49,036 bases of DNA from a virus (lineage: Duplodnaviria; Heunggongvirae; Uroviricota; Caudoviricetes): the IMG/VR virus record IMGVR_UViG_2531839476_000015, positions 1 through 49,036 of that record. One strand, 5' to 3'. The stretch's first letter is position 1. Every line of letters begins with the position of its first letter. The position numbers and the translations under genes were made by a program. Positions 7,255 to 27,869 of the stretch are shown one piece after another. The notes under the pieces are model-generated. The model was not told where the DNA came from. It saw nothing but the letters and a program-made list of their open reading frames with translations, and did not search any database.

Positions 7255-7387
7255 TCTTTGGGACTCCTGGCTGATTAAGTATGTCGATAAGGCGTTTCCA
7301 TCCGTCACGTAATTTACGGGTGATTCGTTCAAGTAAAGATTCGGAAGGGCAGCCAGCAACAGGCCACCCTGCAATGGCATATTGCAT
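7223..7387 (-). CDS. cIII: cIII, FtsH protease inhibitor
   Basis: 54 aa [54 protein letters not shown], lambda cIII. Confidence 0.9.
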
Positions 7388-7459
7388 GGTGTGCTCCTTA
7401 TTTATACATAACGAAAAACGCCTCGAGTGAAGCGTTATTGGTATGCGGTAAAACCGCAC

Positions 7460-19941: not shown

Positions 19942-20017
19942 GGCCCTTTAGCTCAGTGGTGAGAGCGAGTGACTCATAATCGCCAGGTCGCTGGTTCAAA
20001 TCCAGCAAGGGCCACCA
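19942..20017 (+). tRNA. ileZ: tRNA with CAU anticodon (Ile2-lysidine or Met type; ileZ-like of Stx phages)
   Basis: Hand fold: 7-bp acceptor GGCCCTT/AAGGGCC, D arm GCTC/GAGC, anticodon loop CTCATAA, T arm GCTGG-TTCAAAT-CCAGC, discriminator A and encoded CCA. Confidence 0.8.
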
Positions 20018-20018
20018 A

Positions 20019-20084
20019 CCGCCACTAGCTCATCAGGAAAGAACGTCACCCTGTGCGAGATTCGGAGTCCCCGGTGGCGGTCCA
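20019..20084 (+). other. tRNA-like remnant (acceptor-like ends CCGCCAC/GTGGCGG and encoded CCA, but no foldable D or T arm; only 66 nt)
   Basis: Sits where Stx phages carry a second tRNA (argN); I could not fold a canonical cloverleaf by hand. Confidence 0.3.
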
Positions 20085-20097
20085 TTATCAGCATCAT

Positions 20098-20174
20098 GCG
20101 TTGTTAGCTCAGTCGGACAGAGCAATTGCCTTCTAAGCAATCGGTCAGTGGTTAGACTCCACTACAACGCGCCA
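20098..20174 (+). tRNA. argO: tRNA-Arg (anticodon UCU; argO-like)
   Basis: Hand fold: acceptor GCGTTGT/ACAACGC, D arm GCTC/GAGC, anticodon stem ATTGC/GCAAT with loop CTTCTAA, T arm AGTGG-TTAGACT-CCACT, encoded CCA. Confidence 0.85.
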
Positions 20175-20939: not shown

Positions 20940-21120
20940 TTTTTTTGTTTGCTGTTTATTAAAAACACTTCTGCATGGTGAATCCCCCTGTGCGGAGGGG
21001 CGACTGGTGTAGGTAGCATTTATTATGTTATAGGCAAGCCGACGCGGGTTCAGTGACACCGGCTGAATTCACCGGGAGGCACCCGGCACCATGCAAGAAA
21101 AAGAATGTGCATGCAAACAT

Positions 21121-21145
21121 GCCCCTCTCCGGAGGGGCATTTTTT
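21121..21145 (+). terminator. Intrinsic terminator (GCCCCTC-tccg-GAGGGGC then T6)
   Basis: Perfect 7-bp GC-rich stem plus T tract downstream of the TerB-like cargo; a second hairpin follows at about 21159-21176. Confidence 0.55.
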
Positions 21146-21360
21146 ATGGGTAAAAAATGCCCGAATGGGTTCGGGCAATAGCATGAGATACTGATATTGT
21201 TGTGTTGTTATCGTGTGGATTTTAACCAGGGTTTATCAGGCTGCGCAACTGCGTGGCCTTTTTTCATTTCTTGGGCTGTAGTCCCCGTGTGTCATTCAGG
21301 CTTCCGGACTACAGCCCACTCCATATCTGATTTAATACACTATCCCGGCCGGGAGGAATA

Positions 21361-23978: not shown

Positions 23979-24512
23979 ATGAACGCAAAAATCAGATACG
24001 GCGTGTCGGCTGCCGTTCTGGCGCTGATTGGTGCAGGGGCGTCTGCGCCTGAAATCCTCGACCAGTTTCTTGACGAAAAAGAAGGTAACCACACCACGGC
24101 ATACCGTGATGGTGCGGGTATCTGGACCATCTGCCGCGGTGCCATCCTGGTGGATGGTAAACCTGTCGTTCCGGGCATGAAGTTGTCGAAGGAAAAATGC
24201 GACCGGGTTAACGCCATTGAGCGTGATAAGGCGCTGGCATGGGTGGCGAAAAACATCAAAGTGCCACTGACTGAACCCCAGAAAGCGGGTATTGCGTCAT
24301 TCTGTCCTTACAACATTGGCCCAGGTAAGTGTTTCCCGTCGACGTTTTATAAACGAATTAATGCAGGAGATCGAAAAGGTGCCTGCGAAGCGATTCGCTG
24401 GTGGATTAAGGACGGTGGCAGAGACTGCCGTATTCGCTCAAATAACTGTTATGGTCAGGTATCCCGTCGTGACCAGGAGAGCGCTCTGGCGTGCTGGGGA
24501 ATCGACAGATAA
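23979..24512 (+). CDS. R: Endolysin, SAR-type lysozyme (P21 R / RrrD-like)
   Basis: 177 aa MNAKIRYGVSAAVLALIGAGASAPEILDQFLDEKEGNHTTAYRDGAGIWTICRG..., N-terminal signal-anchor-release segment, close to DLP12 RrrD. Confidence 0.92.
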   Translation: MNAKIRYGVSAAVLALIGAGASAPEILDQFLDEKEGNHTTAYRDGAGIWTICRGAILVDGKPVVPGMKLSKEKCDRVNAIERDKALAWVAKNIKVPLTEPQKAGIASFCPYNIGPGKCFPSTFYKRINAGDRKGACEAIRWWIKDGGRDCRIRSNNCYGQVSRRDQESALACWGIDR

Positions 24513-24785: not shown

Positions 24786-25481
24786 ATGAAAGAGATGATT
24801 TCTGTCGATCATGAAATATCCATGAGTAGTCTGGATTTTCTGAATAACATTATTAATCCAGCCCGGGCAGAAGCCGGAGAAGTCCCTCATGAACCGCGTA
24901 AGTTTCTTGCAAAAATTGAGGATGAGCTAGAGCTTGATGGAACCGGAAAAAAATTCCGGTTAAACAATAACCAAACAAGAACGGCATACTATGATCTGGA
25001 TTTTGACCAGATGATGCTCGTTGGCATGAGGGAGTCAAAGGCCGTTCGTCGTTCTGTGCTGGCAAGACTCAAAGCGATGCATGGTATTCAGATCCCCCGG
25101 ACTTTACCTGAGGCGTTGCGATTTGCGGCAAAACTGGCTGAACAGAAAGCAGTGCTGGAAAATCAACTGGCAATAGCAGCGCCGAAGGCTGAATTTGTTG
25201 ATAACTATGTTGAAGCATCTGGTCTGATGGGATTCCGGGAAGTTGCTAAGTTACTCGGTATCAAAGAAACCGATTTCCGGCTGTTTTTGTTGGAGAACGG
25301 AATAATGTATCGCCTCGCTGGAAAAATGACGCCTTACTCGCATCACCTGGATGCGGGGCGGTTTAGCGTGAAAACGGGCGAGGCGGGCAATGGTCATGCT
25401 TTTACGCAGGTTAAATTCACCCCAAAAGGTGTTCAGTGGATTGCTGGTCTGCTTGCTGCATGGAGAGCTACCGCAGCATGA
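24786..25481 (+). CDS. ant: Antirepressor (AntA-like N-terminus with KilAC C-terminal domain) embedded in the lysis cassette
   Basis: 231 aa; C-terminal half paralogous to the 17549..18277 protein; the same placement between R and Rz occurs in Stx phages. Confidence 0.75.
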   Translation: MKEMISVDHEISMSSLDFLNNIINPARAEAGEVPHEPRKFLAKIEDELELDGTGKKFRLNNNQTRTAYYDLDFDQMMLVGMRESKAVRRSVLARLKAMHGIQIPRTLPEALRFAAKLAEQKAVLENQLAIAAPKAEFVDNYVEASGLMGFREVAKLLGIKETDFRLFLLENGIMYRLAGKMTPYSHHLDAGRFSVKTGEAGNGHAFTQVKFTPKGVQWIAGLLAAWRATAA

Positions 25482-25718: not shown

Positions 25719-26177
25719 ATGCTTTCCGCGTTTACCGTTATTCTGCTGGTGGTCTGTGGTGCGCTTAGTCTGGGGCTGAATCATTACCGCGATAACGTCA
25801 TCACCTACAAAGCGCAGCGCGATAAAAAAGCCAGAGAGCTGGAGCTGGCAAACGCAACCATTACTGATATGCAGGTGCGCCAGCGCGATGTTGCTGCGCT
25901 CGATGCAAAATACTCGAGGGAATTAGCCGATGCGAGAGCTGAAAATGAAACTCTGCGTGCTGATGTTGCCGCTGGTCGTAAGCGCCTGCGGATCAACGCC
26001 ACCTGCTCCGGTACCGTGCGTGAAGCCACCGGCACCTCCGGCGTGGATAATGCAACCGGCCCCCGACTGGCAGACACCGCTGAACGGGATTATTTCATCC
26101 TCAGAGAACGGTTGATGACAATGCAGAAGCAGCTGGAAGGGGCACAGGACTATATCCGCACTCAGTGCCTGAACTAA
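25719..26177 (+). CDS. Rz: Rz i-spanin
   Basis: Start at internal Met MLSAFTVILLVVCGALSLGLNHYRDNVITYKAQRDKKARELELANATITDMQ..., close to lambda Rz. Confidence 0.88.
   Translation: MLSAFTVILLVVCGALSLGLNHYRDNVITYKAQRDKKARELELANATITDMQVRQRDVAALDAKYSRELADARAENETLRADVAAGRKRLRINATCSGTVREATGTSGVDNATGPRLADTAERDYFILRERLMTMQKQLEGAQDYIRTQCLN
25945..26115 (+). CDS. Rz1: Rz1 o-spanin lipoprotein, embedded in +1 frame within Rz
   Basis: MKLCVLMLPLVVSACGS lipobox followed by Pro-rich segment; entirely inside Rz. Confidence 0.78.
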   Translation: MKLCVLMLPLVVSACGSTPPAPVPCVKPPAPPAWIMQPAPDWQTPLNGIISSSENG

Positions 26178-26500
26178 GTTTTGCTGATGCGCCGTATCGT
26201 CGCTGTATTCCCTCATTAACAGAGACCGCAGCCCGACAGGGAGACTCCTCTGCGCGAGTGTGCGGGGAGAATCAAAAACGATACGCACCGGGGTTTACCG
26301 CGTTAACGGAGCGCGGCGTTGTCCCCTCATGGTCGCTGGTTCGGTGCGATGGTGGAAGAAACCGGACGATGTGTTACCTCGCAAGACCTGTTATGTCATG
26401 TGTCTGATTTGTGATTTAAGTCGGATAATTGTCGTTGCCATTAAGCAGAGGATTGATGGCCGACAGGGTGGCATTGTTAGAATAAGACTTATTCTTATCT

Positions 26501-26842
26501 GTGCCGGGAATGAAAATGAAAAGAAATCTTCCGTTAATTATTTTGTTGTCTTCTCTGGTTATGGGCTGTACGCAACATAAAACAGATATGCCCCGACAGT
26601 TGGTTAAGGCATTACCACAATATCCGGCCTATGCAGCGGCAAATTATATAAAGGGACGGGTTGATGTGAAGTTTGATATTGGTGCTGATGGTACTGTCAC
26701 CCGAATTGAGTTTATCCGTTCAGAGCCGCACCATCTGTTTGATGAGCAGGTTGTAAAGGCGATGGCAAAATGGCGATTTGAGAAGGACAGGCCGCGTAAA
26801 GGCGTGAAGAAAACGTTTATCTTTAGTCCTTCTGCACCCTGA
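26501..26842 (+). CDS. Lipoprotein with TonB C-terminal-like domain, at the lambda bor position
   Basis: Lipobox LVMGC; YP.YAAANYIKGRVDVKFDIGADGTVTRIEFIRSEPHHLFDEQVVKAMAKWRF resembles TonB C-terminal fold signature; not Bor. Confidence 0.6.
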   Translation: MPGMKMKRNLPLIILLSSLVMGCTQHKTDMPRQLVKALPQYPAYAAANYIKGRVDVKFDIGADGTVTRIEFIRSEPHHLFDEQVVKAMAKWRFEKDRPRKGVKKTFIFSPSAP

Positions 26843-26973
26843 TTATTTCATCAGAAATTAATTATCACTCTGTTGTTATTCTGTACATTCCGGCTGGGTA
26901 AGTCTTGTTCCGCCGGGTATGAAGATGAAATATTGTTGGAGGACAGTGGGTACCTGCTCCTGTAACCGAACGT

Positions 26974-27174
26974 TCATTTCTCGTTATTTGTCATGCTGGC
27001 CGGACGCAGATGCGTTGCATCTGTTGCCAGCCTTCTCCTGCAGGCTTCAATAACCCACGCTGAAAAGTTACCGGAACCTTTATGTTCAAGGGCGATATTG
27101 ATCTGTTCAATCATGTGATTGGGGAAACGGATATTGCGGGTTGTGGTTCTGCGGGTCCGGTTTTTCGATGACAT
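26974..27174 (-). CDS. Ribbon-helix-helix (CopG/Arc-like) DNA-binding protein
   Basis: ORF track 26974..27234; internal Met MSSKNRTRRTTTRNIRFPNHMIEQINIALEHKGSGNFSAWVIEACRRRL has the beta-strand/helix pattern of RHH proteins; start uncertain. Confidence 0.55.
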   Translation of the reverse strand: MSSKNRTRRTTTRNIRFPNHMIEQINIALEHKGSGNFSAWVIEACRRRLATDATHLRPASMTNNEK

Positions 27175-27215
27175 ATTTATTTCCTTTACTGATTGCCATA
27201 TGACGGGGATTTTAC

Positions 27216-27581
27216 ATGGCTGAGCTTCGTACACTCCAGAGCAGAATCAAAACACTGAATACCCGACGGGTGAATATTCTGAAGGGTGAACAGCGTCGTG
27301 TCAGTGGCAGTGCACGTGTTTCCCTCAAGCGTCATATCTGGCTCAGGGATGCCGGGCAGTGCTGTCTCTGTGGTCGTGTGGTTGACCTCTGTGACAGTGA
27401 ACTCGATCACCGAATTGCACTTCAGTTCGGTGGTGGTAATGAGGAGACGAATCTCTGGACGCTCTGTACCGAATGCCATCGACAAAAGTCTGCTCGTGAA
27501 GCGGCGGGTGGTATGCCGGACCCGACGCTGCCGGAGGTGTCCGGAGGTAGTGGCAGAGCGGACGACATCATCGGACTGTAA
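27216..27581 (+). CDS. HNH endonuclease (packaging-associated)
   Basis: CxxC ... DHRIALQFGG..NLWTLCTECHRQK motif; located immediately upstream of terminase genes as in HK97-like phages. Confidence 0.8.
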   Translation: MAELRTLQSRIKTLNTRRVNILKGEQRRVSGSARVSLKRHIWLRDAGQCCLCGRVVDLCDSELDHRIALQFGGGNEETNLWTLCTECHRQKSAREAAGGMPDPTLPEVSGGSGRADDIIGL

Positions 27582-27673: not shown

Positions 27674-27793
27674 GTTAACATGTTAACTGGCTGTCCGGGC
27701 ATTTTTGCGGTTTTTATCTTTATTATTCAGTTTGTTGTGCGGAAAAAATGTTAACTGGCTTTTTCAGCAAATGTTAACCAGGCAGCAGTTAAC
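27674..27793 (+). repeat. Array of five GTTAAC-centred repeats (consensus aTGTTAACyGG, direct and inverted) upstream of terS; candidate TerS binding sites
   Basis: gttaacatgttaac palindrome at 27674-27687, further copies near 27750, 27773 and 27788 in both orientations. Confidence 0.5.
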
Positions 27794-27869
27794 ATTTGCG
27801 GCATGAGACGCCGGGAAAAATGGGCTGAACCATACCCGGCTGAGTGCGTTCTGGACCCGGGAGGAGGCT

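Follow-up and report, generated by a model that had tools for sequence, protein, structure and literature searches.

A prevalent prophage lipoprotein with a TonB C-terminal domain, a possible outer-membrane decoy for TonB-dependent entry

Why does a lambdoid prophage carry, between its lysis and packaging genes, a short gene whose product resembles TonB's C-terminal domain? We addressed this question in the IMG/VR virus record IMGVR_UViG_2531839476_000015, positions 1 to 49,036 of which make up the window (the whole stretch of 49,036 nucleotides that was analysed, and to which coordinates refer unless another sequence is named). The window is a lambdoid prophage of the type found in Shiga toxin-producing Escherichia coli (STEC), and the gene lies on its plus strand at 26516..26842. 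A preliminary description of the locus had proposed that a periplasmic mimic of the TonB C-terminal domain (CTD) interferes with TonB-dependent receptors, and by analogy with known inhibitors this would still be the most economical mechanism. In our preferred view, the product belongs to the phage lipoproteins of the outer membrane, is directed at entry by the TonB-dependent route and is built from TonB's own docking domain.

Because the longest form of the open reading frame (ORF) spans 26501-26842 (plus strand), the position of the start codon had to be considered. The preliminary description had used 26501. The ATG at 26516, however, has GGGA ahead of it at 26506-26509, is the only start that is common to the second allele of the gene, and is the start chosen by NCBI, suggesting that it is most likely the conserved start and that 26501 should be replaced by it. 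The coding sequence (CDS) thus comprises 108 amino acids and a stop codon and corresponds to WP_000828070.1 ('TonB family protein'), which is located in a STEC prophage with 100% identity. The gene has been annotated for two decades, in an old entry as 'partial tonB-like membrane protein encoded within prophage CP-933N'. No functional study of it came up in full-text literature searches that combined TonB, prophage, moron, decoy, phage 21 and the accession of the protein, and a family specific to this lipoprotein is lacking from both NCBIfam and PADLOC.

We then considered whether the product truly contains a TonB CTD. The domain was delimited from Pfam, NCBIfam and alignments to Protein Data Bank (PDB) entries as residues 26-104 (26591..26827, plus strand), equivalent to residues 153-231 of E. 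coli TonB. Pfam PF03544 (TonB_C) matched with E=5e-15 and 56.1 bits against a cut-off of 24.6, and TIGR01352 with 56.5 bits against a cut-off of 27.1. The same residues align without a gap to TonB 153-231 of E. coli and Salmonella (1u07, 2gsk, 2grx, 8rd6; E~3e-16, ~39% identity), and this alignment covers the whole globular domain of the solved TonB CTDs. The YP motif, the aromatic core (F53, F75, W86, F88 and F103) and the beta3 edge strand KKTFIF are all kept. These scores bear out the TonB CTD of the preliminary description, and the structure prediction that it had named as a check points the same way. From an input of 6 close sequences (the homolog matches were 60-99% identical and of E. 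coli type), AlphaFold gave a low-confidence model (pLDDT 56) with the order helix-strand-strand-helix-strand. The top 12 Foldseek matches of this model in the PDB were all TonB or FusB CTDs, with probabilities of 0.96-1.00 and TM scores, normalised to the target, of 0.40-0.59.

The protein is, judged by its sequence, not a TonB energy transducer. Against the TonB equivalog models NF008080-84 its best score was 73.2 bits, far from the cut-off of 315, and the match was limited to the C-terminal ~85 profile positions. The membrane anchor and the proline-rich rod of TonB are absent, the sole hydrophobic segment being a cleavable lipoprotein signal peptide, and therefore neither coupling to ExbB/ExbD nor energy transduction would be expected. 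The protein ends 5 residues past the beta3 Phe, and the last ~7 residues of TonB are missing. Leu33 aligns with Q160 of TonB, a position occupied by Leu or Tyr, and the position of TonB R166 is a Tyr. Nor is the gene a fragment of the host tonB, given the identity of ~39% and a signal peptide of its own.

At the N-terminus we read a type II (lipoprotein) signal peptide, MKRNLPLIILLSSLVMG, with the putatively lipid-modified Cys18 (codon 26567-26569), at 26516..26569 on the plus strand. The sequence MKR-NLPLIILLSSLVMG-C18 consists of a basic n-region, a hydrophobic core and the lipobox LVMG followed by C18, in agreement with the pattern [LVI][ASTVIM][GAS]C near residue 15-35 that we took to define a lipobox. 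When 13 family members with identities as low as 33% were aligned, Cys18 was invariant and the residue at -1 was always Gly or Ala, so that the earlier assignment of a lipoprotein with the lipobox LVMGC stands. Residue +2 is Thr, with no Asp, and outer-membrane sorting is therefore expected; the lipoprotein is predicted to reach the outer membrane by a Lol-dependent route.

The gene is common and appears to be maintained. It exists as two alleles with 71% protein and 72% DNA identity, which between them occur in 1616 of 5426 complete E. coli genomes (~30%). The window allele (allele 1) was found in ~415 of these genomes, mostly STEC, and the other (allele 2) in ~1200. At least 80% of the gene length was matched in 1612 of the 5426 genomes, and an intact CDS was annotated throughout the matches listed. 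Carriers of allele 2 include phage 21, where the product is annotated 'TonB C-terminal domain protein', the uropathogenic E. coli (UPEC) strain CFT073, and the phages ev017, Perceval and the PhiR series. A scan of IMG/VR returned matches limited to near-identical E. coli prophages. The ratio of non-synonymous to synonymous substitution rates (dN/dS) between the alleles was 0.12, with synonymous sites saturated, and the comparison indicates that the protein is under purifying selection.

We also asked whether the gene follows the receptor specificity of the phages that carry it. The carriers differ in their J tail tips and in their packaging modules; the C-termini of J among them were 100, 89, 76 and 65% identical, and the J of the window equals that of VT1-Sakai. 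A cor gene is absent from the window-type prophage. Because the J C-termini are this diverse and no cor gene is present, a role tied to the phage's own receptor is unlikely, and we rejected self-receptor exclusion linked to the tail tip.

The lipoprotein has relatives outside E. coli. An exhaustive profile search uncovered a family of short lipoproteins (105-135 amino acids) with the same architecture, and 15 loci, distributed over Raoultella, Klebsiella, Serratia, Erwinia, Pantoea and Pseudescherichia, came from a genome scan with a 6-sequence alignment. These relatives are mostly chromosomal, examples being homologs next to lacZ/lacI-like genes or in the vicinity of nhaB, fadR and dsbB; at one Serratia locus and in a Klebsiella phage the homolog sits after lysis genes. 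We searched 14 of the loci with the 19-bp Fur consensus GATAATGATAATCATTATC. In 10 of the 14, the best match of the entire 9-16 kb locus (14-17/19) was 0-46 nt upstream of the start of the homolog (L002-L007, L009, L011, L013 and L015, from Raoultella, Klebsiella, Serratia, Erwinia and Pantoea). As a background, the 49-kb window contains one 14/19 site and eleven 13/19 sites. The Fur-box matches upstream of the mostly chromosomal non-E. coli relatives are new here. The non-E. coli family thus appears, from the position of these boxes, to be regulated by iron and Fur, which ties the family to iron/TonB physiology.

What might such a protein do? The reading that we tentatively prefer, possible though short of probable, is that it is an outer-membrane-tethered, non-energised, dominant-negative binder of Ton boxes (or of the TonB CTD) that competes with TonB and thereby lowers TonB-dependent entry. 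A lipid anchor at the outer membrane would be followed by a linker of ~7 residues and by a stand-alone TonB CTD, whose beta3 edge would take up TonB-box segments by beta-strand augmentation. The targets would be the Ton boxes of TonB-dependent transporters, and of incoming group B colicins, where these come out on the periplasmic side of the outer membrane, and binding would compete with the cell's own, limiting TonB. In a sub-variant, the lipoprotein would capture the CTD of TonB itself. TonB-dependent import would be partly jammed as a net effect, at some cost in iron uptake, and the lysogen or infected cell would be shielded from phages that depend on TonB (T1/phi80 type), from group B colicins and from siderophore-microcins. 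Expression would come from late read-through and possibly from a candidate promoter of the gene's own. We infer lipidation, outer-membrane location, TonB-box binding, the inhibitory phenotype and expression alike from sequence and precedent. A wider form of the proposal, namely that the protein is a natural 'TonB jammer' which confers broad, receptor-independent exclusion and was recruited from an unrecognised Fur-regulated family of chromosomal TonB-modulating lipoproteins in Enterobacterales, seems to us rather doubtful.

Published work on TonB and on other phage lipoproteins is consistent with a decoy. In the BtuB:TonB complex, TonB 153-233 is docked and its sheet is joined by the Ton box as a parallel strand (PMC5413942); since the whole of this transporter-docking part is kept in the lipoprotein, TonB-box binding is expected. 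TonB Q160L, a substitution at the position where the lipoprotein has Leu33, retains function and acts as a suppressor of TonB-box mutants in both FhuA and colicin M, and colicin M requires contact with TonB through its own Ton box in addition to that of FhuA (PMC11658791). A preprint (bioRxiv 10.1101/2020.01.05.895219), citing earlier work, states that the engineered periplasmic TonB fragments 33-239, 103-239 and 122-239 inhibit the TonB system. Finally, Llp and Cor are phage lipoproteins of the inner leaflet of the outer membrane which bind the periplasmic face of FhuA, a surface that TonB also occupies (bioRxiv 10.64898/2026.03.26.714494).

Several observations weigh against a decoy. The shortest inhibitory fragment cited is 122-239, whereas the domain here begins at the counterpart of residue 153. 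The affinity of isolated Ton-box peptides for TonB is only micromolar (PMC5413942), and because transporters far outnumber TonB, a decoy directed at their Ton boxes would have to be highly expressed. In a strict scan, no consensus promoter or terminator was found to flank the gene. The relatives appear to be repressed by Fur and would therefore come on at the same time as the transporters, an odd pattern if the protein were an inhibitor and nothing else. UPEC CFT073 depends on TonB for virulence and has allele 2, so that strong constitutive inhibition is unlikely. TonB R166 contacts the plug of FhuA, and its equivalent in the lipoprotein is Tyr. A search of PADLOC gave no defence-system match for the lipoprotein, and we rejected membership of the defence systems held there.

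The Fur boxes of the relatives can be taken in the opposite sense, that is, as a sign of a positive accessory of TonB-dependent uptake. In this unlikely case the lipoprotein would pre-organise transporters, hold periplasmic binding proteins or substrates near, or recruit TonB, and the prophage copy would be a fitness or virulence moron that improves iron uptake. The upstream boxes of the chromosomal relatives would bring co-induction with the uptake machinery, the majority of relatives are plain chromosomal genes and not phage genes, and the gene is frequent in pathogens that need iron. Moreover, TonB-type CTDs can bind ligands other than Ton boxes, and the complex of the FusB CTD with ferredoxin (9hi3) was among our fold matches. 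However, a protein unconnected to ExbBD cannot supply energy, any binding to Ton boxes should bring it into competition with TonB, and the Fur-like sites of the E. coli prophage alleles are degenerate. To our knowledge, there is also no precedent for a TonB-like helper at the outer membrane. A Ton-box-independent role in the envelope is less likely again; here the domain would be a peptidoglycan- or protein-binding module that stiffens or tethers the envelope and gives resistance to serum or stress, as proposed for Bor/Iss. Affinity of the TonB C-terminus for peptidoglycan has been proposed in the literature, the predicted outer-membrane lipoprotein has a small basic domain, and the gene occupies the same moron region as bor/iss and stands directly beside iss in CFT073 and phage 21. 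But it has no sequence relation to Bor/Iss, its conservation tracks the core and edge strand of the TonB CTD, and the Fur boxes of the relatives indicate iron biology over general envelope structure.

The position of the gene after the lysis genes raises the question of a function in lysis. PHROG 1267 (phrog_1267), which is labelled 'Rz-like spanin' and placed in the lysis category, matches the lipoprotein over its full length (E=2e-42) and would make it a lysis accessory or spanin-like protein that is expressed only late. The product is indeed a lipoprotein, its gene, on the strand of the late operon, comes immediately after the lysis genes without an intervening terminator, and Klebsiella and Serratia prophages have the gene at the same position. 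The prophage, however, already has a spanin pair that is complete without the TonB-like protein, namely Rz (i-spanin, 25719..26177, plus strand; Pfam Phage_lysis E=9e-50) and, embedded in it, Rz1 (o-spanin, 25930-26115, plus strand; Pfam Rz1 E=1.7e-21). In addition, the product has a globular TonB_C domain and is not a proline-rich o-spanin, which places it outside the spanins; most relatives are chromosomal and away from lysis genes; and collinear prophages do without the gene. We therefore regard a lysis function as extremely improbable, and, with a complete Rz/Rz1 pair beside the gene, the spanin label of phrog_1267 for these TonB CTD lipoproteins is most likely a positional mis-annotation that was propagated. 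It is very improbable, too, that the gene is a functionless hitch-hiker, a captured fragment neither expressed nor selected in E. coli prophages. Such a fragment would agree with the lack of a consensus promoter or terminator, with the word 'partial' in the old annotation as a tonB-like membrane protein, and with a Fur box that is degenerate relative to those of the relatives. It would not agree with a dN/dS of 0.12 at saturated synonymous sites, with a CDS that is intact in all E. coli matches listed and matched over at least 80% of its length in 1612 of 5426 genomes, with a lipobox conserved across the family, or with a sequence that, by its ~39% identity and own signal peptide, is no fragment of the host tonB.

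We examined the surroundings of the gene for expression signals. A strict scan found neither a sigma-70 consensus promoter on the plus strand nor a terminator between Rz and terS. No terminator hairpin was evident downstream of the gene or between it and the convergent gene that follows, the downstream hairpins being unremarkable. With no consensus promoter or terminator of its own, the gene is expected to be transcribed with the late operon. A candidate extended -10 element, TGTTAGAAT (TGTCAGAAT in allele 2), was noted on the plus strand at 26475..26483, ~33 nt before the start codon. The block ATTGTYAGAATAAGAC, which holds TGTTAGAAT, is conserved in both alleles amid diverged surroundings and contains the extended -10-like sequence TGTYAGAAT, and the element at 26475-26483 is thus a candidate promoter for expression in the lysogen. 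A perfect 7-1-7 palindrome, GAATAAG-A-CTTATTC, overlaps the candidate -10 at 26480..26494; it is not kept in allele 2 and was rejected as a conserved operator. The region of the palindrome is also a weak Fur-box-like site (13/19 over 26481-26499). Since the best sites of the E. coli alleles, 13/19 in allele 1 and 11/19 in allele 2, are within the background of the window, we rejected Fur regulation of these alleles. Inside the TonB-like ORF, and directed towards its 5' end, there is a near-consensus sigma-70 promoter on the opposite strand (TTCACA-16-TATAAT, 11/12, 26670-26643, minus strand), and the phage 21 allele also has the TATAAT together with a 4/6 -35 of this antisense promoter. It might serve in antisense regulation; alternatively, the N-Y-I-K codons would have given rise to it as a by-product.

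The gene is part of a moron-like cassette of 604 bp (26363..26966), which was delimited by alignment to collinear prophages without the gene. Compared with the collinear, gene-less prophage of strain AR_451, the window has exactly 604 extra bases at 26363-26966. They are flanked by an imperfect 9-bp direct repeat, AACCG(G/A)ACG, at 26360-26368 and 26964-26972, and their GC content is 40-46%, compared with 55-58% in the flanks. In an O157:H7 prophage, an unrelated filler occupies the site. Presence in some prophages and absence from others, along with base composition, indicate that the cassette is a prophage accessory gene, i.e., a moron.

The gene had earlier been placed at the position where lambda carries bor. 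This is correct in that the gene follows Rz/Rz1, in the inter-module region in which lambda has bor, and it does not hold in the sense of a replacement, for bor/iss and the TonB-like gene occur together in phage 21 and CFT073. The gene therefore shares the moron region of lambda without replacing bor, and Pfam gave no Bor family match for the TonB-like protein. In CFT073 (L023, 1420154-1427463), allele 2 is ~480 bp from the serum-survival gene iss, and in the same prophage a gene for an OmpC-like porin lies shortly before the lysis genes. A prophage of the STEC strain E2863 (L022, NZ_AP018802.1 1693900-1706000) matches window positions 26300-27250 at 100%. Its J and the J of VT1-Sakai have identical C-termini, and downstream of its tail genes are lom, tail-fibre genes and the type III secretion system effectors nleH1-2, nleF and nleG, some of them disrupted by insertion sequences.

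The gene order around the cassette is holin, YdfR and lysozyme, a KilAC gene, Rz with Rz1, the TonB-like gene, ylcI (minus strand), HNH, the probable cos region, terS and terL. Holin, YdfR and lysozyme (23979-24512) come upstream of the KilAC gene; the latter (24786-25481) encodes a KilAC-domain antirepressor and is inserted within the lysis cassette, between the lysozyme gene and Rz/Rz1. The HNH endonuclease gene (27216..27581, plus strand; Pfam HNH) is followed by the probable cos region, terS (27870) and terL (28430). Five of the 6 ATGTTAAC octamers in the window cluster, in both orientations, at 27674-27795 between HNH and terS; they are probably binding sites of the small terminase subunit (cosB) in a cos region of HK97 type. 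Directly after Rz, and outside the cassette, is an unannotated non-coding element of ~185 nt (26178..26362, plus strand). At least 80% of this element was covered in 1561 of the 5426 complete E. coli genomes, with 90-100% conservation and no annotated feature. A genome often has several copies of it, irrespective of the TonB-like gene, and two GC-rich hairpins in it are conserved. Rfam gave no match to 26178-26362, and we rejected the idea that the 330-nt upstream region holds a structured RNA or riboswitch (no Rfam match, and a fold z-score of only -1.26).

On the other side of the TonB-like gene, in the HNH/terminase module and outside the cassette, is a minus-strand gene of the ylcI/ynfO family (26974..27174; 66 amino acids, DUF3950). 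Its product matched Pfam DUF3950 (PF13132; E=4e-20, 71.8 bits against 25) and NCBIfam YlcI_YnfO_N (NF041551; 35.3 against a cut-off of 30). The preliminary description had taken it for a ribbon-helix-helix (RHH) protein, divergent from the TonB-like gene and possibly its regulator. The AlphaFold model of YlcI (pLDDT 71) has an extended N-terminus followed by two helices, with weak structural resemblance to the RHH antitoxin ParD2, and an RHH fold is plausible on this model. The orientation has to be revised: ylcI and the TonB-like gene are convergent, tail-to-tail with a 131-nt gap, and ylcI is divergent only from HNH at 27216. Prophages with ylcI and without the TonB-like gene are common, and the carriers of the phage 21/CFT073 type, whose packaging module is a different one, have the TonB-like gene without ylcI. 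Because the genes are convergent and each occurs without the other, the evidence does not support YlcI as a regulator dedicated to the TonB-like gene, and this part of the description was abandoned. The protein resembles its family (ylcI of DLP12 and ynfO of Qin in K-12) in its full-length match and in its site just upstream of the packaging genes, and the minus-strand ORF has no feature that distinguishes it from them.

Elsewhere in the window, the following elements scored above the Rfam gathering score: STnc100 (20944-21151, plus strand), followed by the anti-GcvB small RNA AgvB (21152-21213, minus strand); isrK and the C4 antisense RNA with its a1/b1 target (16551-16749, plus strand); and the lambda cIII thermoregulator (7342-7400, minus strand). 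Two tRNAs are at 19942-20171.

If the decoy reading is true, the lipoprotein would represent a new kind of superinfection exclusion and bacteriocin tolerance, acting at the shared energy-coupling step and not at a single receptor. It would bear on the host range of phages in therapy, many therapeutic and model phages using TonB-dependent receptors, as well as on colicin- or microcin-producing probiotics against STEC in cattle and on the uptake of siderophore-conjugated antibiotics. It would also offer a natural means of studying the way in which TonB locates Ton boxes. The stakes concern roughly one-third of E. coli genomes, STEC and UPEC included. Since the chromosomal relatives appear to be under Fur control, the iron-uptake regulon of Klebsiella, Raoultella, Serratia, Erwinia and Pantoea may include a component that has been overlooked. 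Should the decoy reading prove wrong, what remains is a gene for a very common, conserved and unstudied prophage lipoprotein beside the virulence marker iss.

How, then, does the lipoprotein compare with known systems? It is homologous to the CTD of TonB (residues ~150-239; PF03544; 1u07, 1xx3, 2gsk, 2grx) across the whole globular domain. TonB, however, is anchored in the inner membrane, whereas the lipoprotein is predicted to be lipid-anchored at the outer membrane, and it is without the N-terminal transmembrane helix, the proline-rich rod, the coupling to ExbB/ExbD and the last ~7 residues. With the engineered, dominant-negative TonB fragments that are brought to the periplasm by a fused signal peptide (bioRxiv 10.1101/2020.01.05.895219), it shares a TonB CTD that lies in the periplasm without the energy-coupling N-terminus, and a loss of TonB-dependent transport would be the expected phenotype. 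Those fragments are soluble and longer; the lipoprotein is natural, would be lipid-anchored and begins at the equivalent of residue 153, and its inhibitory activity is a prediction.

Llp of T5 and Cor of phi80, N15, HK022 and mEp167 are, like the protein described here, small phage lipoproteins; they reside in the inner leaflet of the outer membrane, as is predicted for the latter. Llp and Cor act on the periplasmic face of a TonB-dependent transporter and block phage entry (bioRxiv 10.64898/2026.03.26.714494; PMC11436027). Their fold and family are unrelated to the TonB-like lipoprotein, which matched no Cor/Llp-type family in PHROG or PADLOC. They are specific to FhuA and act allosterically on its extracellular loops, whereas a decoy made of a TonB domain would act on the Ton-box step; as this step is shared, a broad effect on many transporters and colicins would be expected. 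The diverse J tail tips of the carriers argue against a self-receptor-specific role, in contrast to Llp and Cor. Bor of lambda and Iss, finally, are outer-membrane lipoprotein morons encoded between the lysis genes and cos/terminase, as the TonB-like lipoprotein is predicted to be; they are encoded on the opposite strand, have no sequence similarity to it, and co-exist with its gene in phage 21 and CFT073.

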